The position numbers were made by a program, and so were the translations under genes. Shown here one piece after another: positions 859-14,684 of a stretch of DNA of 14,684 bases. How positions within the stretch are numbered: the stretch's first letter is position 1; each line of letters opens with the position of its first letter. The notes under the pieces are model-generated. The model was not told the DNA's origin. It saw nothing but the letters and a program-made list of their open reading frames with translations, and did no database searches. The stretch comes from Naegleria gruberi (lineage: Eukaryota): the NCBI GenBank assembly GCA_000004985.1, contig GG738979.1, one strand, 5' to 3'.

Positions 859-885
859 ATGCAATATATAATATCTATTAAATCA

Positions 886-3800
886 NNNNNNNNNNNNNNN
901 NNNNNNNNNNNNNNNNNNNNNNNNNNNNNNNNNNNNNNNNNNNNNNNNNNNNNNNNNNNNNNNNNNNNNNNNNNNNNNNNNNNNNNNNNNNNNNNNNNNN
1001 NNNNNNNNNNNNNNNNNNNNNNNNNNNNNNNNNNNNNNNNNNNNNNNNNNNNNNNNNNNNNNNNNNNNNNNNNNNNNNNNNNNNNNNNNNNNNNNNNNNN
1101 NNNNNNNNNNNNNNNNNNNNNNNNNNNNNNNNNNNNNNNNNNNNNNNNNNNNNNNNNNNNNNNNNNNNNNNNNNNNNNNNNNNNNNNNNNNNNNNNNNNN
1201 NNNNNNNNNNNNNNNNNNNNNNNNNNNNNNNNNNNNNNNNNNNNNNNNNNNNNNNNNNNNNNNNNNNNNNNNNNNNNNNNNNNNNNNNNNNNNNNNNNNN
1301 NNNNNNNNNNNNNNNNNNNNNNNNNNNNNNNNNNNNNNNNNNNNNNNNNNNNNNNNNNNNNNNNNNNNNNNNNNNNNNNNNNNNNNNNNNNNNNNNNNNN
1401 NNNNNNNNNNNNNNNNNNNNNNNNNNNNNNNNNNNNNNNNNNNNNNNNNNNNNNNNNNNNNNNNNNNNNNNNNNNNNNNNNNNNNNNNNNNNNNNNNNNN
1501 NNNNNNNNNNNNNNNNNNNNNNNNNNNNNNNNNNNNNNNNNNNNNNNNNNNNNNNNNNNNNNNNNNNNNNNNNNNNNNNNNNNNNNNNNNNNNNNNNNNN
1601 NNNNNNNNNNNNNNNNNNNNNNNNNNNNNNNNNNNNNNNNNNNNNNNNNNNNNNNNNNNNNNNNNNNNNNNNNNNNNNNNNNNNNNNNNNNNNNNNNNNN
1701 NNNNNNNNNNNNNNNNNNNNNNNNNNNNNNNNNNNNNNNNNNNNNNNNNNNNNNNNNNNNNNNNNNNNNNNNNNNNNNNNNNNNNNNNNNNNNNNNNNNN
1801 NNNNNNNNNNNNNNNNNNNNNNNNNNNNNNNNNNNNNNNNNNNNNNNNNNNNNNNNNNNNNNNNNNNNNNNNNNNNNNNNNNNNNNNNNNNNNNNNNNNN
1901 NNNNNNNNNNNNNNNNNNNNNNNNNNNNNNNNNNNNNNNNNNNNNNNNNNNNNNNNNNNNNNNNNNNNNNNNNNNNNNNNNNNNNNNNNNNNNNNNNNNN
2001 NNNNNNNNNNNNNNNNNNNNNNNNNNNNNNNNNNNNNNNNNNNNNNNNNNNNNNNNNNNNNNNNNNNNNNNNNNNNNNNNNNNNNNNNNNNNNNNNNNNN
2101 NNNNNNNNNNNNNNNNNNNNNNNNNNNNNNNNNNNNNNNNNNNNNNNNNNNNNNNNNNNNNNNNNNNNNNNNNNNNNNNNNNNNNNNNNNNNNNNNNNNN
2201 NNNNNNNNNNNNNNNNNNNNNNNNNNNNNNNNNNNNNNNNNNNNNNNNNNNNNNNNNNNNNNNNNNNNNNNNNNNNNNNNNNNNNNNNNNNNNNNNNNNN
2301 NNNNNNNNNNNNNNNNNNNNNNNNNNNNNNNNNNNNNNNNNNNNNNNNNNNNNNNNNNNNNNNNNNNNNNNNNNNNNNNNNNNNNNNNNNNNNNNNNNNN
2401 NNNNNNNNNNNNNNNNNNNNNNNNNNNNNNNNNNNNNNNNNNNNNNNNNNNNNNNNNNNNNNNNNNNNNNNNNNNNNNNNNNNNNNNNNNNNNNNNNNNN
2501 NNNNNNNNNNNNNNNNNNNNNNNNNNNNNNNNNNNNNNNNNNNNNNNNNNNNNNNNNNNNNNNNNNNNNNNNNNNNNNNNNNNNNNNNNNNNNNNNNNNN
2601 NNNNNNNNNNNNNNNNNNNNNNNNNNNNNNNNNNNNNNNNNNNNNNNNNNNNNNNNNNNNNNNNNNNNNNNNNNNNNNNNNNNNNNNNNNNNNNNNNNNN
2701 NNNNNNNNNNNNNNNNNNNNNNNNNNNNNNNNNNNNNNNNNNNNNNNNNNNNNNNNNNNNNNNNNNNNNNNNNNNNNNNNNNNNNNNNNNNNNNNNNNNN
2801 NNNNNNNNNNNNNNNNNNNNNNNNNNNNNNNNNNNNNNNNNNNNNNNNNNNNNNNNNNNNNNNNNNNNNNNNNNNNNNNNNNNNNNNNNNNNNNNNNNNN
2901 NNNNNNNNNNNNNNNNNNNNNNNNNNNNNNNNNNNNNNNNNNNNNNNNNNNNNNNNNNNNNNNNNNNNNNNNNNNNNNNNNNNNNNNNNNNNNNNNNNNN
3001 NNNNNNNNNNNNNNNNNNNNNNNNNNNNNNNNNNNNNNNNNNNNNNNNNNNNNNNNNNNNNNNNNNNNNNNNNNNNNNNNNNNNNNNNNNNNNNNNNNNN
3101 NNNNNNNNNNNNNNNNNNNNNNNNNNNNNNNNNNNNNNNNNNNNNNNNNNNNNNNNNNNNNNNNNNNNNNNNNNNNNNNNNNNNNNNNNNNNNNNNNNNN
3201 NNNNNNNNNNNNNNNNNNNNNNNNNNNNNNNNNNNNNNNNNNNNNNNNNNNNNNNNNNNNNNNNNNNNNNNNNNNNNNNNNNNNNNNNNNNNNNNNNNNN
3301 NNNNNNNNNNNNNNNNNNNNNNNNNNNNNNNNNNNNNNNNNNNNNNNNNNNNNNNNNNNNNNNNNNNNNNNNNNNNNNNNNNNNNNNNNNNNNNNNNNNN
3401 NNNNNNNNNNNNNNNNNNNNNNNNNNNNNNNNNNNNNNNNNNNNNNNNNNNNNNNNNNNNNNNNNNNNNNNNNNNNNNNNNNNNNNNNNNNNNNNNNNNN
3501 NNNNNNNNNNNNNNNNNNNNNNNNNNNNNNNNNNNNNNNNNNNNNNNNNNNNNNNNNNNNNNNNNNNNNNNNNNNNNNNNNNNNNNNNNNNNNNNNNNNN
3601 NNNNNNNNNNNNNNNNNNNNNNNNNNNNNNNNNNNNNNNNNNNNNNNNNNNNNNNNNNNNNNNNNNNNNNNNNNNNNNNNNNNNNNNNNNNNNNNNNNNN
3701 NNNNNNNNNNNNNNNNNNNNNNNNNNNNNNNNNNNNNNNNNNNNNNNNNNNNNNNNNNNNNNNNNNNNNNNNNNNNNNNNNNNNNNNNNNNNNNNNNNNN

Positions 3801-5792
3801 NNNNNNNNNNNNNNNNNNNNNNNNNNNNNNNNNNNNNNNNNNNNNNNNNNNNNNNNNNNNNNNNNNNNNNNNNNNNNNNNNNNNNNNNNNNNNNNNNNNN
3901 NNNNNNNNNNNNNNNNNNNNNNNNNNNNNNNNNNNNNNNNNNNNNNNNNNNNNNNNNNNNNNNNNNNNNNNNNNNNNNNNNNNNNNNNNNNNNNNNNNNN
4001 NNNNNNNNNNNNNNNNNNNNNNNNNNNNNNNNNNNNNNNNNNNNNNNNNNNNNNNNNNNNNNNNNNNNNNNNNNNNNNNNNNNNNNNNNNNNNNNNNNNN
4101 NNNNNNNNNNNNNNNNNNNNNNNNNNNNNNNNNNNNNNNNNNNNNNNNNNNNNNNNNNNNNNNNNNNNNNNNNNNNNNNNNNNNNNNNNNNNNNNNNNNN
4201 NNNNNNNNNNNNNNNNNNNNNNNNNNNNNNNNNNNNNNNNNNNNNNNNNNNNNNNNNNNNNNNNNNNNNNNNNNNNNNNNNNNNNNNNNNNNNNNNNNNN
4301 NNNNNNNNNNNNNNNNNNNNNNNNNNNNNNNNNNNNNNNNNNNNNNNNNNNNNNNNNNNNNNNNNNNNNNNNNNNNNNNNNNNNNNNNNNNNNNNNNNNN
4401 NNNNNNNNNNNNNNNNNNNNNNNNNNNNNNNNNNNNNNNNNNNNNNNNNNNNNNNNNNNNNNNNNNNNNNNNNNNNNNNNNNNNNNNNNNNNNNNNNNNN
4501 NNNNNNNNNNNNNNNNNNNNNNNNNNNNNNNNNNNNNNNNNNNNNNNNNNNNNNNNNNNNNNNNNNNNNNNNNNNNNNNNNNNNNNNNNNNNNNNNNNNN
4601 NNNNNNNNNNNNNNNNNNNNNNNNNNNNNNNNNNNNNNNNNNNNNNNNNNNNNNNNNNNNNNNNNNNNNNNNNNNNNNNNNNNNNNNNNNNNNNNNNNNN
4701 NNNNNNNNNNNNNNNNNNNNNNNNNNNNNNNNNNNNNNNNNNNNNNNNNNNNNNNNNNNNNNNNNNNNNNNNNNNNNNNNNNNNNNNNNNNNNNNNNNNN
4801 NNNNNNNNNNNNNNNNNNNNNNNNNNNNNNNNNNNNNNNNNNNNNNNNNNNNNNNNNNNNNNNNNNNNNNNNNNNNNNNNNNNNNNNNNNNNNNNNNNNN
4901 NNNNNNNNNNNNNNNNNNNNNNNNNNNNNNNNNNNNNNNNNNNNNNNNNNNNNNNNNNNNNNNNNNNNNNNNNNNNNNNNNNNNNNNNNNNNNNNNNNNN
5001 NNNNNNNNNNNNNNNNNNNNNNNNNNNNNNNNNNNNNNNNNNNNNNNNNNNNNNNNNNNNNNNNNNNNNNNNNNNNNNNNNNNNNNNNNNNNNNNNNNNN
5101 NNNNNNNNNNNNNNNNNNNNNNNNNNNNNNNNNNNNNNNNNNNNNNNNNNNNNNNNNNNNNNNNNNNNNNNNNNNNNNNNNNNNNNNNNNNNNNNNNNNN
5201 NNNNNNNNNNNNNNNNNNNNNNNNNNNNNNNNNNNNNNNNNNNNNNNNNNNNNNNNNNNNNNNNNNNNNNNNNNNNNNNNNNNNNNNNNNNNNNNNNNNN
5301 NNNNNNNNNNNNNNNNNNNNNNNNNNNNNNNNNNNNNNNNNNNNNNNNNNNNNNNNNNNNNNNNNNNNNNNNNNNNNNNNNNNNNNNNNNNNNNNNNNNN
5401 NNNNNNNNNNNNNNNNNNNNNNNNNNNNNNNNNNNNNNNNNNNNNNNNNNNNNNNNNNNNNNNNNNNNNNNNNNNNNNNNNNNNNNNNNNNNNNNNNNNN
5501 NNNNNNNNNNNNNNNNNNNNNNNNNNNNNNNNNNNNNNNNNNNNNNNNNNNNNNNNNNNNNNNNNNNNNNNNNNNNNNNNNNNNNNNNNNNNNNNNNNNN
5601 NNNNNNNNNNNNNNNNNNNNNNNNNNNNNNNNNNNNNNNNNNNNNNNNNNNNNNNNNNNNNNNNNNNNNNNNNNNNNNNNNNNNNNNNNNNNNNNNNNNN
5701 NNNNNNNNNNNNNNNNNNNNNNNNNNNNNNNNNNNNNNNNNNNNNNNNNNNNNNNNNNNNNNNNNNNNNNNNNNNNNNNNNNNNNNNNNNNN
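886..5792. other. N-masked block of 4907 nt whose content cannot be assessed. It is bracketed by candidate in-frame start and stop codons on both strands. On the plus strand these are ATG 859-861 and TAG 5794-5796. On the minus strand they are ATG at 5797-5799 and TGA at 883-885, which lies immediately next to the mask. One large CDS of about 1640 codons is plausible, but the strand is undetermined.
   Basis: The ORF-track frames through the Ns are open only because N translates to X. What is real is the flanking codons: the minus-strand TGA abuts the mask exactly, and the minus-strand ATG sits 4 nt from the other edge. This mirrors the layout of the better-supported gene at 7995-13496. Confidence 0.3.
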
Positions 5793-6730
5793 GTAGCATG
5801 AAATATCGGAACTTGGCAAATTGATAAGATGATGAAAATCTGATAATAAATATGATGTTTATTATCTATTTAAATAGTAGTACTAAAAGACATGATTCAA
5901 GTTGGTGAAGTACATGTTGAGTTATGGTCCATGTACTTTTTCAAAATTCACATGTACCTATCCCTATCATAACTTGACCAAAATTGATAAGATAAAGTTC
6001 TCCTACCTACTATTGACTATTCCGAACAATGCTACATTGACAGTTTTCCAACTTATCCAGTAGATCCAACGGTGATGAATTTAGTGAAAATTTTGACATT
6101 TCACCAAAATTACATTACTAAAAATTAATTTCCACAAATACTATTATTATATTGATGGAAAACAATAATGATGATGGTTGGTAAATGATCCGATGATGGA
6201 ACACCAAATTGTGATTTTCCATCAAGAAAAATAAATTCCAATTTCATGATGATAATCCACCAATAAAAATTACTAATATTACTACTATTTAGATAATGTT
6301 GAGATGATGTTGTGAAAGTTTGGTGGTTTCATGATGTAAAACCGCTCCGAGAATGGTCATGTCCATAGAGGACCATTTGTTGAATATTTTTTGATTCTTT
6401 TGTTTAAAAAATATCACTTCACTCCTAGTATCTTCATTTCAATATGGAAAACATTGATATTCAATGTACATCATCTTTGGATATCCGTCAATATTAAAAT
6501 AATTAATTTTATTGTTTAAAATCATCAAGAAATTTAAATATAATGCCATCATCTTTAGATGAATCTTGGAAAACTTTCAAATCAATAAGACTCTCGGATG
6601 TTGTTCGAACAGATTGAGTTGTTGTTCTAATAGTATTCCTCAAGTTTACTCTTTGAAATTATTTTTATTTGGTTCAAAGTCGATTTTTTAAGAATAAAGT
6701 AATATTTATTAACGTCTTTTGTATCGTAAA

Positions 6731-6748
6731 GACCTGAGAGACGAGGTC
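6731..6748 (-). terminator. Hairpin with a 5-bp stem and 8-nt loop (gacct gagagacg aggtc), located 35 nt downstream of the stop codon of the 6783-7145 ORF on the minus strand. An AATAAA on the minus strand (plus-strand tttatt at 6705-6710) follows about 20 nt further on. This is a candidate 3'-end processing region.
   Basis: The inverted repeat is seen directly, as is the AATAAA hexamer on the transcribed strand. The functional role is inference only. Confidence 0.25.
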
Positions 6749-6782
6749 TACAACCAGTAAGTTTCGGTTCAGCGTTTAAGTG

Positions 6783-7145
6783 TTATGGGTTGATGCTAAG
6801 TGGTTGGTTAGACTGAGCTTGCCTGTGGTAGGCAGAGAGGTTTTTCCTGTTAATAGTGAAGCTTGCATTGGGACGGTTGTACCACACTGAGTTCTTGTAG
6901 CAATTTTCCAAATAAATAGCTAGTGCTTTGTAGACTTCTAGGGCCACATTCTTAGGTATTCTTTTGCGCTTAGACCAGTTAAGCCAGTCATTACGGGAGC
7001 AACGACCATCAAATTCTATCATAAGTTGAGAGGATTCTGAGATATCAGGAGGGAAACGAATCTTGTTAAGGCTAAATTTCTGGGAGATAGAGTCCCATGT
7101 GGCATACTAAATAACCCAAATAAATCAACTCTGAATCCTAACCAT
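6783..7145 (-). CDS. Small, compositionally distinct ORF, possibly a histone-fold (H4-like architecture) protein of about 108 aa. It would require a 36-nt GT..AG intron (7107-7142) directly after the ATG at 7143-7145. The uninterrupted ORF is 6783-7022 (79 aa), and the frame stays open upstream to 7106. The alternative reading is a pseudogene relic of a pogo/Tc5-type transposase HTH.
   Basis: The region 6715-7110 is clearly GC-richer than its surroundings and uses codons that are rare elsewhere in the window (CGT, CGC, TGC, TCC, GCC). The translation is KRIPKNVALEVYKALAIYLENCYKNSVWY...SFTINRKNLSAYHRQ. It aligns without gaps to the H4 alpha2-L2 region [29 protein letters not shown]...KTVTAMDVVYALKRQ. 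The spacings are identical: KRI to LEN is 17 residues and LEN to Y is 8 residues, and the L2 signature T-[IV]-x3-[DN]-[IL] is present. The N-terminal 45 residues are not basic, so this is not a canonical H4. The segment FDGRCSRNDWLNWSKRKRI also resembles the SNGWLDRFRRRHGV motif of HTH_Tnp_Tc5 (CENP-B/pogo). In-frame stops upstream are bypassed only if the 36-nt intron is real. Confidence 0.35.
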
Positions 7146-7274
7146 TGCTGTGTTGCACCTCTTTTCTTCTTCTTTCCAGTTCAACTCAAAGTAACAAAAG
7201 AACCTTGGAGGTTTACCGTGATTTCTGATTCCATTTTACCAACTGTACCATGTTATCATGATAAACTAAACTCT

Positions 7275-7282
7275 ATAAATAC
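7275..7282 (+). promoter_or_regulatory. Consensus TATA box (TATAAATA) lying 59-66 nt upstream of the ATG at 7341. It sits in the 195-bp divergent intergenic region between the 6783-7145 ORF (minus) and the 7341-7949 gene (plus).
   Basis: Exact TATAAATA match, flanked by the comparatively GC-containing acgagtcc. AT-rich background makes chance matches common, so confidence is low. Confidence 0.3.
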
Positions 7283-7340
7283 GAGTCCAATAACATGACA
7301 CAACCCAAAACCAACTTCAAAAAAACAAGTCAACCAACAA

Positions 7341-7949
7341 ATGCCTCCACCACCTCCACCAAGCAATAATAGCATTATTAGTACTTCTCAAGGATTTACT
7401 CCACCACCACCTCCTGGAATAAACAGTTCTTTCAAAGTAGGAGGAGGCACTCCACCACCTCCTGGATCATTCTCTCCAATGATTCAAGATCCAGTTTCCA
7501 TTCCAGTGATTGGAGGAAAGGTCAATAAGGTTCAAGCAAAAAAGTCAACGAAACAGTACATTAATGTGAGAGAAATTATTGGACCAAAAGATGTTTTCCA
7601 AGCATTGAGAATTGCTCCATCAGTTTTTAAGGAATTATTTGGAGTTTCTTATCCAAATAATTCAGAATATTTGGAAGGTCAACAAATTGCTCAAGTTGTC
7701 TTTGAAGATTTCGAATTAAATTTGATTTGGGCGAGGGATATGAGTCAAACTGATGATTCGTATGCAGTTCCATATGCCATGACTGATAGTACTCATGCCT
7801 TGTGGGAATTGTTGGGAAATAATGGTTTCGAATTGAGAGATTCGAGAAATTATCTCACCTATCAAACTAATAGAGTGAGCAGATTTAATGGAAGAATGTT
7901 ATGCGAAAGAGTATTCAACTCAAAACAAAATCAATATAAATTATTATAA
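7341..7949 (+). CDS. Hypothetical 202-aa protein. Its N-terminus carries three polyproline tracts (PPPPPP, PPPPP, PPPP) spaced 13-15 residues apart, in the style of a formin FH1 or WASP-type profilin/SH3-binding region. The C-terminal half (about 150 aa) is unrecognised. The stop codon is TAA.
   Basis: Uninterrupted ORF from ATG 7341 (context caacaaATGcc, A-rich upstream) to TAA 7947-7949. Proline is encoded almost entirely by CCA/CCT, matching the AT-rich host codon bias. All 12 glutamines are CAA/CAG. A TATA box lies upstream. No domain assignment is possible by eye. Confidence 0.65.
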   Translation: MPPPPPPSNNSIISTSQGFTPPPPPGINSSFKVGGGTPPPPGSFSPMIQDPVSIPVIGGKVNKVQAKKSTKQYINVREIIGPKDVFQALRIAPSVFKELFGVSYPNNSEYLEGQQIAQVVFEDFELNLIWARDMSQTDDSYAVPYAMTDSTHALWELLGNNGFELRDSRNYLTYQTNRVSRFNGRMLCERVFNSKQNQYKLL

Positions 7950-7994
7950 TAAATTAATTTTTTGTTGTACAATTTACAATAAAATTACAATAAA

Positions 7995-10900
7995 TTAATG
8001 AGTGAACTTTTCAATATTCTCTCGTAACCAAACATCTATTTCGTTAATGGTTATTCCACCAGATTTGTCAGTATCAATTACATCGAAGAAGTATGTTACA
8101 TGATCTCCACTTGGTATTCCCAATTCAAATTGTTTGAATAAATCTGTTAAGAATTGATCAAATTCATCTCTATCTATTTTACCATCCACATTAGTATCGT
8201 ACTTTCTGAAAATTGATTGTAAAACTTCAACTTGTTTGGTGGTATTCTTTTCAGCAAGATATGAATCGAGAANNNNNNNNNNNNNNNNNNNNNNNNNNNN
8301 NNNNNNNNNNNNNNNNNNNNNNNNNNNNNNNNNNNNNNNNNNNNNNNNNNNNNNNNNNNNNNNNNNNNNNNNNNNNNNNNNNNNNNNNNNNNNNNNNNNN
8401 NNNNNNNNNNNNNNNNNNNNNNNNNNNNNNNNNNNNNNNNNNNNNNNNNNNNNNNNNNNNNNNNNNNNNNNNNNNNNNNNNNNNNNNNNNNNNNNNNNNN
8501 NNNNNNNNNNNNNNNNNNNNNNNNNNNNNNNNNNNNNNNNNNNNNNNNNNNNNNNNNNNNNNNNNNNNNNNNNNNNNNNNNNNNNNNNNNNNNNNNNNNN
8601 NNNNNNNNNNNNNNNNNNNNNNNNNNNNNNNNNNNNNNNNNNNNNNNNNNNNNNNNNNNNNNNNNNNNNNNNNNNNNNNNNNNNNNNNNNNNNNNNNNNN
8701 NNNNNNNNNNNNNNNNNNNNNNNNNNNNNNNNNNNNNNNNNNNNNNNNNNNNNNNNNNNNNNNNNNNNNNNNNNNNNNNNNNNNNNNNNNNNNNNNNNNN
8801 NNNNNNNNNNNNNNNNNNNNNNNNNNNNNNNNNNNNNNNNNNNNNNNNNNNNNNNNNNNNNNNNNNNNNNNNNNNNNNNNNNNNNNNNNNNNNNNNNNNN
8901 NNNNNNNNNNNNNNNNNNNNNNNNNNNNNNNNNNNNNNNNNNNNNNNNNNNNNNNNNNNNNNNNNNNNNNNNNNNNNNNNNNNNNNNNNNNNNNNNNNNN
9001 NNNNNNNNNNNNNNNNNNNNNNNNNNNNNNNNNNNNNNNNNNNNNNNNNNNNNNNNNNNNNNNNNNNNNNNNNNNNNNNNNNNNNNNNNNNNNNNNNNNN
9101 NNNNNNNNNNNNNNNNNNNNNNNNNNNNNNNNNNNNNNNNNNNNNNNNNNNNNNNNNNNNNNNNNNNNNNNNNNNNNNNNNNNNNNNNNNNNNNNNNNNN
9201 NNNNNNNNNNNNNNNNNNNNNNNNNNNNNNNNNNNNNNNNNNNNNNNNNNNNNNNNNNNNNNNNNNNNNNNNNNNNNNNNNNNNNNNNNNNNNNNNNNNN
9301 NNNNNNNNNNNNNNNNNNNNNNNNNNNNNNNNNNNNNNNNNNNNNNNNNNNNNNNNNNNNNNNNNNNNNNNNNNNNNNNNNNNNNNNNNNNNNNNNNNNN
9401 NNNNNNNNNNNNNNNNNNNNNNNNNNNNNNNNNNNNNNNNNNNNNNNNNNNNNNNNNNNNNNNNNNNNNNNNNNNNNNNNNNNNNNNNNNNNNNNNNNNN
9501 NNNNNNNNNNNNNNNNNNNNNNNNNNNNNNNNNNNNNNNNNNNNNNNNNNNNNNNNNNNNNNNNNNNNNNNNNNNNNNNNNNNNNNNNNNNNNNNNNNNN
9601 NNNNNNNNNNNNNNNNNNNNNNNNNNNNNNNNNNNNNNNNNNNNNNNNNNNNNNNNNNNNNNNNNNNNNNNNNNNNNNNNNNNNNNNNNNNNNNNNNNNN
9701 NNNNNNNNNNNNNNNNNNNNNNNNNNNNNNNNNNNNNNNNNNNNNNNNNNNNNNNNNNNNNNNNNNNNNNNNNNNNNNNNNNNNNNNNNNNNNNNNNNNN
9801 NNNNNNNNNNNNNNNNNNNNNNNNNNNNNNNNNNNNNNNNNNNNNNNNNNNNNNNNNNNNNNNNNNNNNNNNNNNNNNNNNNNNNNNNNNNNNNNNNNNN
9901 NNNNNNNNNNNNNNNNNNNNNNNNNNNNNNNNNNNNNNNNNNNNNNNNNNNNNNNNNNNNNNNNNNNNNNNNNNNNNNNNNNNNNNNNNNNNNNNNNNNN
10001 NNNNNNNNNNNNNNNNNNNNNNNNNNNNNNNNNNNNNNNNNNNNNNNNNNNNNNNNNNNNNNNNNNNNNNNNNNNNNNNNNNNNNNNNNNNNNNNNNNNN
10101 NNNNNNNNNNNNNNNNNNNNNNNNNNNNNNNNNNNNNNNNNNNNNNNNNNNNNNNNNNNNNNNNNNNNNNNNNNNNNNNNNNNNNNNNNNNNNNNNNNNN
10201 NNNNNNNNNNNNNNNNNNNNNNNNNNNNNNNNNNNNNNNNNNNNNNNNNNNNNNNNNNNNNNNNNNNNNNNNNNNNNNNNNNNNNNNNNNNNNNNNNNNN
10301 NNNNNNNNNNNNNNNNNNNNNNNNNNNNNNNNNNNNNNNNNNNNNNNNNNNNNNNNNNNNNNNNNNNNNNNNNNNNNNNNNNNNNNNNNNNNNNNNNNNN
10401 NNNNNNNNNNNNNNNNNNNNNNNNNNNNNNNNNNNNNNNNNNNNNNNNNNNNNNNNNNNNNNNNNNNNNNNNNNNNNNNNNNNNNNNNNNNNNNNNNNNN
10501 NNNNNNNNNNNNNNNNNNNNNNNNNNNNNNNNNNNNNNNNNNNNNNNNNNNNNNNNNNNNNNNNNNNNNNNNNNNNNNNNNNNNNNNNNNNNNNNNNNNN
10601 NNNNNNNNNNNNNNNNNNNNNNNNNNNNNNNNNNNNNNNNNNNNNNNNNNNNNNNNNNNNNNNNNNNNNNNNNNNNNNNNNNNNNNNNNNNNNNNNNNNN
10701 NNNNNNNNNNNNNNNNNNNNNNNNNNNNNNNNNNNNNNNNNNNNNNNNNNNNNNNNNNNNNNNNNNNNNNNNNNNNNNNNNNNNNNNNNNNNNNNNNNNN
10801 NNNNNNNNNNNNNNNNNNNNNNNNNNNNNNNNNNNNNNNNNNNNNNNNNNNNNNNNNNNNNNNNNNNNNNNNNNNNNNNNNNNNNNNNNNNNNNNNNNNN

Positions 10901-13496
10901 NNNNNNNNNNNNNNNNNNNNNNNNNNNNNNNNNNNNNNNNNNNNNNNNNNNNNNNNNNNNNNNNNNNNNNNNNNNNNNNNNNNNNNNNNNNNNNNNNNNN
11001 NNNNNNNNNNNNNNNNNNNNNNNNNNNNNNNNNNNNNNNNNNNNNNNNNNNNNNNNNNNNNNNNNNNNNNNNNNNNNNNNNNNNNNNNNNNNNNNNNNNN
11101 NNNNNNNNNNNNNNNNNNNNNNNNNNNNNNNNNNNNNNNNNNNNNNNNNNNNNNNNNNNNNNNNNNNNNNNNNNNNNNNNNNNNNNNNNNNNNNNNNNNN
11201 NNNNNNNNNNNNNNNNNNNNNNNNNNNNNNNNNNNNNNNNNNNNNNNNNNNNNNNNNNNNNNNNNNNNNNNNNNNNNNNNNNNNNNNNNNNNNNNNNNNN
11301 NNNNNNNNNNNNNNNNNNNNNNNNNNNNNNNNNNNNNNNNNNNNNNNNNNNNNNNNNNNNNNNNNNNNNNNNNNNNNNNNNNNNNNNNNNNNNNNNNNNN
11401 NNNNNNNNNNNNNNNNNNNNNNNNNNNNNNNNNNNNNNNNNNNNNNNNNNNNNNNNNNNNNNNNNNNNNNNNNNNNNNNNNNNNNNNNNNNNNNNNNNNN
11501 NNNNNNNNNNNNNNNNNNNNNNNNNNNNNNNNNNNNNNNNNNNNNNNNNNNNNNNNNNNNNNNNNNNNNNNNNNNNNNNNNNNNNNNNNNNNNNNNNNNN
11601 NNNNNNNNNNNNNNNNNNNNNNNNNNNNNNNNNNNNNNNNNNNNNNNNNNNNNNNNNNNNNNNNNNNNNNNNNNNNNNNNNNNNNNNNNNNNNNNNNNNN
11701 NNNNNNNNNNNNNNNNNNNNNNNNNNNNNNNNNNNNNNNNNNNNNNNNNNNNNNNNNNNNNNNNNNNNNNNNNNNNNNNNNNNNNNNNNNNNNNNNNNNN
11801 NNNNNNNNNNNNNNNNNNNNNNNNNNNNNNNNNNNNNNNNNNNNNNNNNNNNNNNNNNNNNNNNNNNNNNNNNNNNNNNNNNNNNNNNNNNNNNNNNNNN
11901 NNNNNNNNNNNNNNNNNNNNNNNNNNNNNNNNNNNNNNNNNNNNNNNNNNNNNNNNNNNNNNNNNNNNNNNNNNNNNNNNNNNNNNNNNNNNNNNNNNNN
12001 NNNNNNNNNNNNNNNNNNNNNNNNNNNNNNNNNNNNNNNNNNNNNNNNNNNNNNNNNNNNNNNNNNNNNNNNNNNNNNNNNNNNNNNNNNNNNNNNNNNN
12101 NNNNNNNNNNNNNNNNNNNNNNNNNNNNNNNNNNNNNNNNNNNNNNNNNNNNNNNNNNNNNNNNNNNNNNNNNNNNNNNNNNNNNNNNNNNNNNNNNNNN
12201 NNNNNNNNNNNNNNNNNNNNNNNNNNNNNNNNNNNNNNNNNNNNNNNNNNNNNNNNNNNNNNNNNNNNNNNNNNNNNNNNNNNNNNNNNNNNNNNNNNNN
12301 NNNNNNNNNNNNNNNNNNNNNNNNNNNNNNNNNNNNNNNNNNNNNNNNNNNNNNNNNNNNNNNNNNNNNNNNNNNNNNNNNNNNNNNNNNNNNNNNNNNN
12401 NNNNNNNNNNNNNNNNNNNNNNNNNNNNNNNNNNNNNNNNNNNNNNNNNNNNNNNNNNNNNNNNNNNNNNNNNNNNNNNNNNNNNNNNNNNNNNNNNNNN
12501 NNNNNNNNNNNNNNNNNNNNNNNNNNNNNNNNNNNNNNNNNNNNNNNNNNNNNNNNNNNNNNNNNNNNNNNNNNNNNNNNNNNNNNNNNNNNNNNNNNNN
12601 NNNNNNNNNNNNNNNNNNNNNNNNNNNNNNNNNNNNNNNNNNNNNNNNNNNNNNNNNNNNNNNNNNNNNNNNNNNNNNNNNNNNNNNNNNNNNNNNNNNN
12701 NNNNNNNNNNNNNNNNNNNNNNNNNNNNNNNNNNNNNNNNNNNNNNNNNNNNNNNNNNNNNNNNNNNNNNNNNNNNNNNNNNNNNNNNNNNNNNNNNNNN
12801 NNNNNNNNNNNNNNNNNNNNNNNNNNNNNNNNNNNNNNNNNNNNNNNNNNNNNNNNNNNNNNNNNNNNNNNNNNNNNNNNNNNNNNNNNNNNNNNNNNNN
12901 NNNNNNNNNNNNNNNNNNNNNNNNNNNNNNNNNNNNNNNNNNNNNNNNNNNNNNNNNNNNNNNNNNNNNNNNNNNNNNNNNNNNNNNNNNNNNNNNNNNN
13001 NNNNNNNNNNNNNNNNNNNNNNNNNNNNNNNNNNNNNNNNNNNNNNNNNNNNNNNNNNNNNNNNNNNNNNNNNNNNNNNNNNNNNNNNNNNNNNNNNNNN
13101 NNNNNNNNNNNNNNNNNNNNNNNNNNNNNNNNNNNNNNNNNNNNNNNNNNNNNNNNNNNNNNNNNNNNNNNNNNNNNNNNNNNNNNNNNNNNNNNNNNNN
13201 NNNNNNNNNNNNNNNNNNNNNNNNNNNNNNNNNNNNNNNNNNNNNNNNNNNNNNNNNNNNNNNNNNNNNNNNNNNNNNNNNNNNNNNNNNNNNNNNNNNN
13301 NNNNNNNNNNNNNNNNNNNNNNNNNNNNNNNNNNNNNNNNNNNNNNNNNNNNNNNNNNNNNNNNNNNNNNNNNNNNNNNNNNNNNNNNNNNNNNNNNNNN
13401 NNNNNNNNNNNNNNNNNNNNNNNNNNNNNNNNNNNNNNNNNNNNNNNNNNNNNNNNNNNNNNNNNNNNNNNNNNNNNNNNNNNNNNNNNNTTTCAT
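7995..13496 (-). CDS. Large protein of about 1830 codons if continuous through the masked block. Its C-terminus carries a pair of canonical EF-hand calcium-binding loops. Only 7995-8272 (91 aa plus the TAA stop) and the first two codons (ATG AAA at 13491-13496) are visible.
   Basis: Visible C-terminal translation: ...FRKYDTNVDGKIDRDEFDQFL...FFDVIDTDKSGGITINEIDVWLRENIEKFTH*. The loops DTNVDGKIDRDE (8163-8198) and DTDKSGGITINE (8040-8075) fit the 12-residue EF-hand consensus D-x-[DN]-x-[DS]-G-x-I-x3-E. The stop is TAA at 7995-7997, only 45 nt from the stop of the convergent 7341-7949 gene. The start ATG at 13494-13496 is inferred from the track, and the body is masked and unverifiable. Confidence 0.6.
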   Translation of the reverse strand: MKXXXXXXXXXXXXXXXXXXXXXXXXXXXXXXXXXXXXXXXXXXXXXXXXXXXXXXXXXXXXXXXXXXXXXXXXXXXXXXXXXXXXXXXXXXXXXXXXXXXXXXXXXXXXXXXXXXXXXXXXXXXXXXXXXXXXXXXXXXXXXXXXXXXXXXXXXXXXXXXXXXXXXXXXXXXXXXXXXXXXXXXXXXXXXXXXXXXXXXXXXXXXXXXXXXXXXXXXXXXXXXXXXXXXXXXXXXXXXXXXXXXXXXXXXXXXXXXXXXXXXXXXXXXXXXXXXXXXXXXXXXXXXXXXXXXXXXXXXXXXXXXXXXXXXXXXXXXXXXXXXXXXXXXXXXXXXXXXXXXXXXXXXXXXXXXXXXXXXXXXXXXXXXXXXXXXXXXXXXXXXXXXXXXXXXXXXXXXXXXXXXXXXXXXXXXXXXXXXXXXXXXXXXXXXXXXXXXXXXXXXXXXXXXXXXXXXXXXXXXXXXXXXXXXXXXXXXXXXXXXXXXXXXXXXXXXXXXXXXXXXXXXXXXXXXXXXXXXXXXXXXXXXXXXXXXXXXXXXXXXXXXXXXXXXXXXXXXXXXXXXXXXXXXXXXXXXXXXXXXXXXXXXXXXXXXXXXXXXXXXXXXXXXXXXXXXXXXXXXXXXXXXXXXXXXXXXXXXXXXXXXXXXXXXXXXXXXXXXXXXXXXXXXXXXXXXXXXXXXXXXXXXXXXXXXXXXXXXXXXXXXXXXXXXXXXXXXXXXXXXXXXXXXXXXXXXXXXXXXXXXXXXXXXXXXXXXXXXXXXXXXXXXXXXXXXXXXXXXXXXXXXXXXXXXXXXXXXXXXXXXXXXXXXXXXXXXXXXXXXXXXXXXXXXXXXXXXXXXXXXXXXXXXXXXXXXXXXXXXXXXXXXXXXXXXXXXXXXXXXXXXXXXXXXXXXXXXXXXXXXXXXXXXXXXXXXXXXXXXXXXXXXXXXXXXXXXXXXXXXXXXXXXXXXXXXXXXXXXXXXXXXXXXXXXXXXXXXXXXXXXXXXXXXXXXXXXXXXXXXXXXXXXXXXXXXXXXXXXXXXXXXXXXXXXXXXXXXXXXXXXXXXXXXXXXXXXXXXXXXXXXXXXXXXXXXXXXXXXXXXXXXXXXXXXXXXXXXXXXXXXXXXXXXXXXXXXXXXXXXXXXXXXXXXXXXXXXXXXXXXXXXXXXXXXXXXXXXXXXXXXXXXXXXXXXXXXXXXXXXXXXXXXXXXXXXXXXXXXXXXXXXXXXXXXXXXXXXXXXXXXXXXXXXXXXXXXXXXXXXXXXXXXXXXXXXXXXXXXXXXXXXXXXXXXXXXXXXXXXXXXXXXXXXXXXXXXXXXXXXXXXXXXXXXXXXXXXXXXXXXXXXXXXXXXXXXXXXXXXXXXXXXXXXXXXXXXXXXXXXXXXXXXXXXXXXXXXXXXXXXXXXXXXXXXXXXXXXXXXXXXXXXXXXXXXXXXXXXXXXXXXXXXXXXXXXXXXXXXXXXXXXXXXXXXXXXXXXXXXXXXXXXXXXXXXXXXXXXXXXXXXXXXXXXXXXXXXXXXXXXXXXXXXXXXXXXXXXXXXXXXXXXXXXXXXXXXXXXXXXXXXXXXXXXXXXXXXXXXXXXXXXXXXXXXXXXXXXXXXXXXXXXXXXXXXXXXXXXXXXXXXXXXXXXXXXXXXXXXXXXXXXXXXXXXXXXXXXXXXXXXXXXXXXXXXXXXXXXXXXXXXXXXXXXXXXXXXXXXXXXXXXXXXXXXXXXXXXXXXXXXXXXXXXXXXXXXXXXXXXXXXXXXXXXXXXXXXXXXXXXLDSYLAEKNTTKQVEVLQSIFRKYDTNVDGKIDRDEFDQFLTDLFKQFELGIPSGDHVTYFFDVIDTDKSGGITINEIDVWLRENIEKFTH

Positions 13497-13959
13497 GCTA
13501 CCAGAGTTGATTCATAGCCCAATTACAAATCAAACAACAATAAAACAACAATTCATAATGTTTATTATGTTATTAAATGTATAATTTCAAGTCTTGTAGC
13601 ATAATTTGTGAAAATCATGGATATCTGATATTTTCATGTTTTTATTGTTTTTCTCATGATGTGGATATTGAATTCTCACTGAAACATCACGAATAGCATG
13701 TCATTCATCCATTCTCTACCAGATAATTATCTTTTACTGTAATTTTCACTATTGGATATATTACTTTTAATATTTGTGATACTTTACTATTTTATTCAAT
13801 GAATAAGGGATGAAAAACATTCATTAGAAGAAGATAGATTCCCAGTAATATATTCTCTCTCTGTACAATTTATTATTTCAATATCTGTCAAGTTAATTGA
13901 GATAGAAGGTTTTTCATCAGCTCATATCAAAATAGCTGGAGTTGAACTACCTTGAAAAA

Positions 13960-14031
13960 GAAGTCTGGAAATTCCAGGAAAGAATTTGGAACAAAAATCT
14001 TTCCTAGAAAATCCAGAGAAAAATCTTTCCG
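13960..14031. promoter_or_regulatory. Cluster of short symmetric and repeated elements 470-540 bp upstream of the 7995-13496 gene start. It contains a 13-nt perfect palindrome (ctggaaattccag, 13964-13976) and two copies of aaaaatctttcc (13993-14004 and 14019-14030, 26 nt apart). The GGAAA/TTTCC half-sites are reiterated in both orientations.
   Basis: Seen directly in the sequence. The location is an intergenic region between the 3' end of the MYND gene and the start of the large EF-hand gene. Function is inference only. Confidence 0.25.
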
Positions 14032-14316
14032 GCTACATCATCCAATATAATTATTGTTCTTTCCATCCCTTAACAAACTTTCCGATAAATGAAACTCTTC
14101 TTCAAACCGATTTTCTCAAATTTTTTCAACAGAAGAGCCTTAATACTTGTTGAGGTATTTTTTTAAGGTTTTTAACAAACAATTCCACTCTCCACAAGAA
14201 CAACGTTCATTTGAAATTGCTACTATTAAACATTATCTATGTATTTCATGATGAAATTGCTGATAAATGGTGAATATCTTCATCACAAGCTGAAACTCAT
14301 CAAGAATAAAGGCATC

Positions 14317-14684
14317 CTAAGCCTTTTTAGTGCATTCCGGTTTGTGGTTTTGCCAATCTTTAACTTGGCAATCTCTACAACAATACTTGACTTTTCCACA
14401 TCTGGAGCAACTTTTAAGTGGCTCTCCCTTCTCACCACAAAGATTTTTACAAGTTGCGCATTTATCCACTTGTTTCTTAGTGTTATTCAATGACTTTTTG
14501 AGACTTGTATATTTTGTATTGATTAATTTCTCTGCCTCTGCTCCAAATTGACTTCCTATGAGATCATAAAATAATGTTTCCACAGGTGCCATATCATCCA
14601 TCTGATTCACAATAAATCCCAAAAGTGTATCAACATTGATCTTTCCTTTTGAGCTTTCATGTCTCAATGCAACTGTTATAATTT
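14317..14684 (-). CDS. 3' portion of a gene encoding a protein with a C-terminal MYND-type zinc finger. The 5' part lies beyond the window edge. The stop is TAG at 14317-14319.
   Basis: Translation: ...CATCKNLCGEKGEPLKSCSRCGKVKYCCRDCQVKDWQNHKPECTKKA*. This matches the MYND pattern C-x2-C-x(7-12)-C-x2-C-x(5-6)-C-x3-C-x7-H-x3-C and occupies about 14332-14460. The frame stays open from M at 14665-14667 to the window end (..IITVCM..), so the gene is partial. Confidence 0.75.
   Translation of the reverse strand, partial: IITVALRHESSKGKINVDTLLGFIVNQMDDMAPVETLFYDLIGSQFGAEAEKLINTKYTSLKKSLNNTKKQVDKCATCKNLCGEKGEPLKSCSRCGKVKYCCRDCQVKDWQNHKPECTKKA

Follow-up and report, generated by a model that had tools for sequence, protein, structure and literature searches.

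The two 11-base words that begin the second and third contigs of this stretch of DNA, GTAGCATGAAA at positions 5793-5803 and, at 13491-13501, its exact reverse complement, are most likely the ends of contigs in a draft scaffold. They are the mark either of a coincidence or of an overlap that was left unmerged, with a misplaced contig or an inverted copy behind it. The feature is most probably a property of the draft assembly and not of biology, and no biological feature is demonstrated by the two words. A start-site motif, an element with 11-bp terminal inverted repeats and a regulatory palindrome are, even when taken jointly, improbable. Continuity of the two contig ends is slightly favoured over coincidence.

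Scaffold Context and the Nature of the N Runs

The window, i.e., the whole stretch of 14,684 nucleotides that was analysed, makes up an entire small scaffold of the Naegleria gruberi NEG-M draft, as is evident from the exact match of its 202-aa ORF to NAEGRDRAFT_54664, the contig of which has precisely the length of the window (14,684 nt). This NEG-M reference was assembled from Sanger sequence (PMC9928731, Table 1). The scaffold consists of three read-scale contigs, at 1-885, 5793-8272 and 13491-14684, with lengths of 885, 2480 and 1194 nt, respectively. The A+T content of the window is 66-68%, and the stop codons are TAA and TGA. In the first contig (plus strand), which has the length of a single read, positions 1-229 are a telomere array of (CCCAAA)n; these 38.5 copies form the very start of the scaffold and are followed by 656 nt of subtelomere. 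TTTGGG is the reported candidate telomere repeat of N. gruberi (PMC3622300). As the CCCAAA array is the strand complement of this repeat, the start of the scaffold is a chromosome end. The plus strand of the whole first contig (1-885, with the telomere array included) holds 8.6% G against 25% C; the subtelomere alone (230-885) holds 11.6% G against 16.5% C, with a GC skew of -0.17.

The second contig (5793-8272, plus strand) begins with 990 nt that are devoid of any convincing gene. Further along, it carries an ORF on the minus strand (6783-7112), NAEGRDRAFT_54664 on the plus strand (7341-7949) and the 3' part of an EF-hand gene. Similarly, the third contig (13491-14684, plus strand) has 826 nt without a gene, after which comes the 3' part of a gene for a MYND-finger protein (14317-14684, minus strand). 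The scaffold is a mosaic of recent duplications lying beside a telomere, and it is poorly assembled, with two gaps in 14.7 kb.

The first N run covers 886-5792 (4907 nt) and the second 8273-13490 (5218 nt), and each of them is most likely a size-estimated scaffold gap. The preliminary description had taken both for masked blocks of sequence. It was right that the two words adjoin these runs; the idea of a mask was not borne out, as the window is a whole Sanger draft scaffold in which the N runs behave as sized gaps. The runs are read as gaps for several reasons. The flanking contigs of 885, 2480 and 1194 nt amount to one to a few Sanger reads each, and neither 4907 nor 5218 is a multiple of three. 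Moreover, the annotated 202-aa gene stays unmasked, and the second run splits the EF-hand gene in half. It is, therefore, highly probable that both N runs are size-estimated assembly gaps and not masked genes. The second run must hold the 5' half of the EF-hand gene, which amounts to about 327 nt of coding sequence.

The minus-strand ATG found in each word had also been described as being in frame with the adjoining block. The arithmetic of this statement holds good: when N is read as X, minus-strand ORFs extend over 883-5799 and 7995-13496, with products of 1638 aa for the first block and 1833 aa for the second. The meaning attached to it does not hold, since the length of a sized gap is an estimate. 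The '1833-aa ORF' is an artefact because its last 91 codons are residues 110-200 of a 200-aa EF-hand protein. The reading of two large minus-strand genes of 1638 and 1833 aa, lying under masks with the 11-mers on their starts, was given up in view of this EF-hand 3' end and of the draft-scaffold origin of the window. The case calls for caution, as N runs may be ordinary sized gaps, the lengths of which carry no information about frame and the edges of which are read ends.

Genes and Duplications in the Visible Contigs

The 202-aa gene (7341-7949, plus strand) is an exact match to NAEGRDRAFT_54664 (EFC35934.1/XP_002668678.1), and its ORF is also 99% identical to a predicted protein of N. gruberi. 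In NEG-M, the family comprises four paralogues on four scaffolds (707,703, 508,457, 216,243 and 14,684 nt), and their products are 95-99% identical. The related DNA with which the window was compared consisted of five loci (L001-L005), which are short metagenome contigs and a distant relative; together they come to 26.6 kb and do not reach the gap edges. The DNA homology to the related copies L004 and L005 is restricted to 7142-7916 (97.7-98.3%) and is abrupt at both edges. CERVF-ERDLSK(M) is the ending of all the other copies of the protein and also of a relative with 52% identity, whereas the window copy ends in CERVF-NSKQNQYKLL and is alone in being without the conserved C-terminus ERDLSKM. 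It is a truncated duplicate, and the point at which other sequence takes over lies 78 nt past the stop of the EF-hand gene, which is convergent with it. The region has thus been recently duplicated.

The 3' part of the EF-hand gene lies at 7995-8272 on the minus strand. It consists of the last 91 codons and the stop of a 200-aa protein with four EF-hands, and it is cut by the second N run. The visible ORF (7998-8270, minus strand) matches a Pfam EF-hand pair. In a full HMMER search, it was found to have 100% identity to residues 110-200 of NAEGRDRAFT_74989 (P0003), a protein encoded on the separate 216,243-nt scaffold. The 90% cluster of this protein has no member from the 14,684-bp scaffold, in agreement with a gene that lacks its 5' half there. 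A word-index homologue search with the EF-hand and MYND fragments gave no candidates; as the index missed even the 100% HMMER match over 91 residues, its negatives are not readable as absence. The consecutive UniProt accessions D2W0V0 and D2W0V1 were observed to belong to P0003 and to a 176-aa paralogue of the neighbouring gene. This consecutive numbering hints that the two genes are neighbours on the 216-kb scaffold as well.

A GC-richer ORF of about 107 codons is located at 6783-7112 on the minus strand (YATWDSISQKF...SINP). It has no Pfam match, and no in-frame ATG occurs in it before codon 29. A possible first exon of six codons was noticed at 7220-7237, with a GT..AG intron; this exon would belong to the duplicated block, the left edge of which is at 7142. 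The two-exon model (113 aa) is doubtful, as its exact product is absent from the protein collection and its first exon would lie within the block from 7142. The ORF may be a gene fragment that was parted from its 5' end by the duplication. At the far end of the window, the 3' part of the MYND zinc finger gene (14317-14684, minus strand; Pfam E = 2e-10) breaks off where the scaffold ends.

One further ORF was seen upstream of the family gene on L004, a metagenome contig of a close relative. It occupies 2-196 on the plus strand of this contig and ends in ...GHSARIGAATELTSKG...GSRSRKRYQRR, which to our eye resembles the C-terminus of a tyrosine recombinase. This assignment was set aside, as the ORF, with a length of only 65 aa, had no match in Pfam.

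The Two Words and Their Chance Expectation

GTAGCATGAAA constitutes the first 11 bases of the second contig (5793-5803, plus strand), where it abuts the first N run, and, on the minus strand, the first 11 bases of the third contig (13491-13501; TTTCATGCTAC on the plus strand), where it abuts the second run. These coordinates, as well as the exactness of the match, were correctly described from the outset. Even with up to one mismatch allowed, these two are the only matches in the window. The suffix of the reverse complement of the third contig is identical to the prefix of the second contig over 11 nt, and such an arrangement is a valid end-to-end (dovetail) overlap. There are eight pairs of ends from different contigs, and this pair alone has a terminal overlap of at least 4 nt.

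With the composition of the window, the probability of complementarity is 0.284 per position. The chance of seven free positions being complementary, for which the preliminary description had given 1 in 16000, rises to 1 in 6,800 with this composition. When the full register condition is applied, i.e., with the C before both ATGs included, the probability is about 3e-6. Inverted repeats of this length are nevertheless frequent here: 20 pairs of exact inverted 11-mers are present in the 4,330 unmasked non-telomeric bases, and a repeat search of the window listed 55 inverted pairs. An inverted 11-mer as such is, therefore, ordinary in the window, and it is the position flush with two contig ends that is unusual. 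A flush dovetail of at least 11 nt is expected at about 1.3e-6 per end pair from composition, and at about 2-3e-6 per pair when the observed frequency of inverted 11-mers is used. From these values, the chance for the whole scaffold comes to about 1-2.5e-5.

The pair may thus be a pure coincidence, in which reverse-complementary 11-mers have formed around the palindrome CATG in sequence of 68% A+T and the two sites are unconnected. The abundance of inverted 11-mers speaks in favour of this reading, and TTT/AAA supplies three of the seven free pairs. The recurrence of the 7-mer GTAGCAT is equally ordinary. Among words of this length with three G/C, 19 of 846 (2.2%) are present at least four times in the window, and the sub-word CATGAAA has seven copies; as 7-mers with four or more copies are common, the extra copies of GTAGCAT add little. 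The visible flanks of the two words show no further similarity, and the word is not found in the 26.6 kb of related loci. The continuity of the two contigs would, in addition, be at odds with the layout of the scaffold. The point against coincidence is that a flush match in the only dovetail-valid orientation, at about 1-2.5e-5 per scaffold, is small in comparison with plausible rates of collapsed inverted copies in a recently duplicated region. Coincidence was accordingly given a substantial chance, though one below even.

Possible Continuity of the Second and Third Contigs

The other main reading, which has not far from an even chance of being correct, is that one and the same 11-bp stretch was read at both contig ends, either because an inverted copy of the third contig lies in the first gap or because a contig has been misplaced. 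The second and third contigs would then each begin with this stretch, seen on the two opposite strands. In the genome, or in one of the copies of the duplicated region, there would be the sequence ...GAATCAACTCTG-GTAGCATGAAA-TATCGGAACTTGG..., so that ...CAACTCTGGTAGCATGAAATATCGGAAC... would exist as a single uninterrupted sequence and the 30-mer CAACTCTGGTAGCATGAAATATCGGAACTT, which spans the junction, would occur in the genome. An overlap of 11 bp would be too short for the assembler to merge. A second, inverted and near-identical copy of the sequence of the third contig would, most simply, be situated in the first gap, beside the second contig, and would have been collapsed by the assembler. 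A misplaced contig would be the less likely alternative to such a collapsed inverted copy.

Continuity contradicts the order and the orientation of the contigs in the scaffold, so it needs either an inverted copy or wrong mate links. In the mate-pair layout, the third contig is placed to the right of the second and in the other orientation; hence, continuity most simply implies a second, inverted copy. A valid clone link over the true junction would have oriented the contigs correctly, which makes a collapsed inverted copy simpler than a direct junction. Such a copy is plausible since the region is demonstrably duplicated, with four paralogues and sharp homology edges.

The ratio of continuity to coincidence was calculated with a guessed prior of 1e-4 to 1e-2 collapsed inverted copies per such scaffold, multiplied by about 0.05 for an overlap of 11-25 nt. 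The ratio spans from less than 1 to about 20, and it is from this span that continuity was placed just under an even chance and coincidence was rated almost as high. The prior for inverted copies is itself a guess, and if it is less than about 3e-4 per scaffold, chance wins. An inverted copy of the third contig in the first gap is, by itself, about as likely as coincidence. An inverted duplication, the edges of which had been proposed earlier as one source of the two words, survives in this technical form only, as the tip of an inverted copy of the third contig in the first gap.

Two weak side observations point in opposite directions. In their strand-asymmetric k-mer content, the two regions next to the gaps are anticorrelated (r = -0.62 for 3-mers; p about 0.02 in comparison with blocks of scrambled orientation), which is the pattern anticipated for two regions of which one is inverted. 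On the other hand, an end-anchored alignment of the same regions in the scaffold's own (direct) orientation gave z = 2-2.6 against shuffles, which points against inversion. A part of this direct alignment is a 24-nt match of 83% that lies 53 and 59 nt from the two edges. Local alignments among all the visible segments, in both orientations, showed similarity at the shuffle level only, apart from the 11-mer. When the reverse complement of the third contig was joined to the second contig, no ORF was found over the junction. Continuity would set two convergent genes about 1.8 kb apart, with no gene in the interval, which counts against it.

The situation resembles the unmerged end overlaps and collapsed repeats of Sanger shotgun scaffolds in its N runs between read-scale contigs, its flush dovetail and its multi-copy region. 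It differs from them in that the matching ends do not face each other over one gap, and 11 bp is at the limit of chance. A likeness to subtelomeric segmental and inverted duplications is also seen, as the locus is 5.8-13.5 kb from the telomere array, with a four-copy family and abrupt block ends. Unlike in such duplications, the visible arm here is at most 11 bp, and every extension of it falls in a gap.

Two further technical origins of the words were discarded. A palindrome centre at which reads stop does not fit, as the joined sequence of the reverse-complemented third contig and the second contig forms no hairpin with the junction at its centre. The idea of a vector or adaptor remnant was dismissed on logical grounds: an untrimmed cloning-site sequence would share its orientation at the two left contig ends and would not be inverted, and the words run on into A+T-rich, Naegleria-like sequence.

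Predicted Hairpins and Proposed Cis-Elements

The 7-mer GTAGCAT does recur, as had been pointed out earlier, at 6029-6035 (minus strand) and at 13596-13602 (plus strand). The first extra copy forms a gapped local inverted repeat with 5793-5812 (GTAGCAT-gaaata-TCGGAA/TTCCGA-aca-ATGCTAC), and the second is the outer end of a local inverted repeat of 13495-13510 with 13587-13602. It was, therefore, considered whether GTAGCATG is a half-palindromic word, protein-binding or hairpin-forming, that is present as inverted pairs near each gap edge and gives rise to local stem-loops. The four copies of GTAGCAT, against the 0.2-0.4 expected from composition, are consistent with this. So is the fact that each edge copy has an upstream partner in a longer inverted repeat, with 14 of 16 positions paired in 13495-13510/13587-13602 and with 7 + 6 bp and an internal loop in 5793-5812/6018-6035. 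The predicted RNA folds have z = -4.0 and -3.3, and the first fold ranks third among 278 windows.

Against this, the fold segments were picked after the repeats had been seen, and z is -3 or lower in 9 of the 278 windows. In real sequence, 7-mers with at least four copies are common, and the extensions of the arms are themselves frequent words of the window, e.g., GAGTTGA and CAACTTG with five copies each. A cis-element would, moreover, leave the flush position at the contig ends unexplained. Rfam at gathering thresholds gave no match, ARAGORN gave no tRNA, and GTAGCATG is absent from the 26.6 kb of related loci. A word of this kind is thus very unlikely. Rated slightly lower still is the proposal that GTAGCATG is a control word over the start codons of two subtelomeric genes, whose upstream inverted copies, 100 and 230 nt away, would form stem-loops that hide the AUG. 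If this were true, GTAGCATG would be a shared translational or transcriptional switch of a subtelomeric gene pair.

The strongest predicted hairpin of the window is found elsewhere, at 13926-14041; its z values are -5.2 on one strand and -4.9 on the other. Here, inverted repeats of GGAAA/TTTCC are clustered (GGAAATTCCAGGAAAGAATTTGGAAC...TCTTTCCTAGAAAATCCAGAGAAAAATCTTTCC), and the cluster in our view resembles arrays of heat-shock-element-like nGAAn units.

Proposed Start Codons and Mobile Elements

Another proposal made earlier was that the two words are the shared start-codon context of two large paralogous genes hidden in the N runs. Both words do have a minus-strand ATG at 3-4 nt from the N run, and in both no other ATG intervenes between this one and the in-frame stop upstream of it. 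The 24-nt direct match (83%), which precedes the two ATGs by 53 and 59 nt, and the end-anchored direct alignment (z = 2-2.6) would also agree with such a proposal. The resemblance to a Kozak-type start context ends with the presence of an ATG on the same strand in each word, as the flanks differ in the coding orientation. Since both ATGs are on the same strand and the words are reverse complements, no start context is shared: the coding-strand sites are TTTC-ATG-CTAC and GTAGC-ATG-AAA, and only C-ATG is common to both. The only verified start in the window, at 7341 (CAACAAATGCC), has a different context and is without the word. The ATGs were not borne out as starts of real ORFs, as these ORFs exist only by reading N as X; a frame through a sized gap is meaningless, and the block-2 ORF is refuted by P0003. 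In addition, read-based contigs would extend hundreds of bases into a repeated gene, and not 6-7 nt, and the k-mer polarity is opposite in the two 'promoters'. A shared start-codon context is, therefore, most improbable.

The least probable of the readings, with hardly any chance of being right, is that a mobile element extends over 5793-13501 and has the words as its terminal inverted repeats of 11 bp, which had likewise been put forward before. Like the terminal inverted repeats of DNA transposons, the two words are short, inverted and a few kilobases apart (7.7 kb). Unlike in such elements, the visible interior consists of ordinary cellular genes, one for the EF-hand protein and one of the 202-aa family. 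A transposase domain was not detected in the visible interior ORFs, for which Pfam gave either an EF-hand or no match; about 5.2 kb of the interior is N. The left flank of 5793 is also N, so a target-site duplication is unreadable. Further copies of the termini were seen neither in the window nor in the five related loci. The true ends of an element are also unlikely to match two contig ends to the base. A MITE or foldback family was rejected as well, as the two local inverted repeats have oppositely arranged terminal 7-mers (GTAGCAT...ATGCTAC in one case and ATGCTAC...GTAGCAT in the other) and so are not copies of one element.

Implications

If the overlap between the second and third contigs is real, it would mark a local assembly fault at one chromosome end of N. 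gruberi, where either an inverted copy was collapsed or a contig of 1.2 kb was put in the wrong place. Such a finding would not amount to a new biological system; it would be of use for the finishing of the genome.
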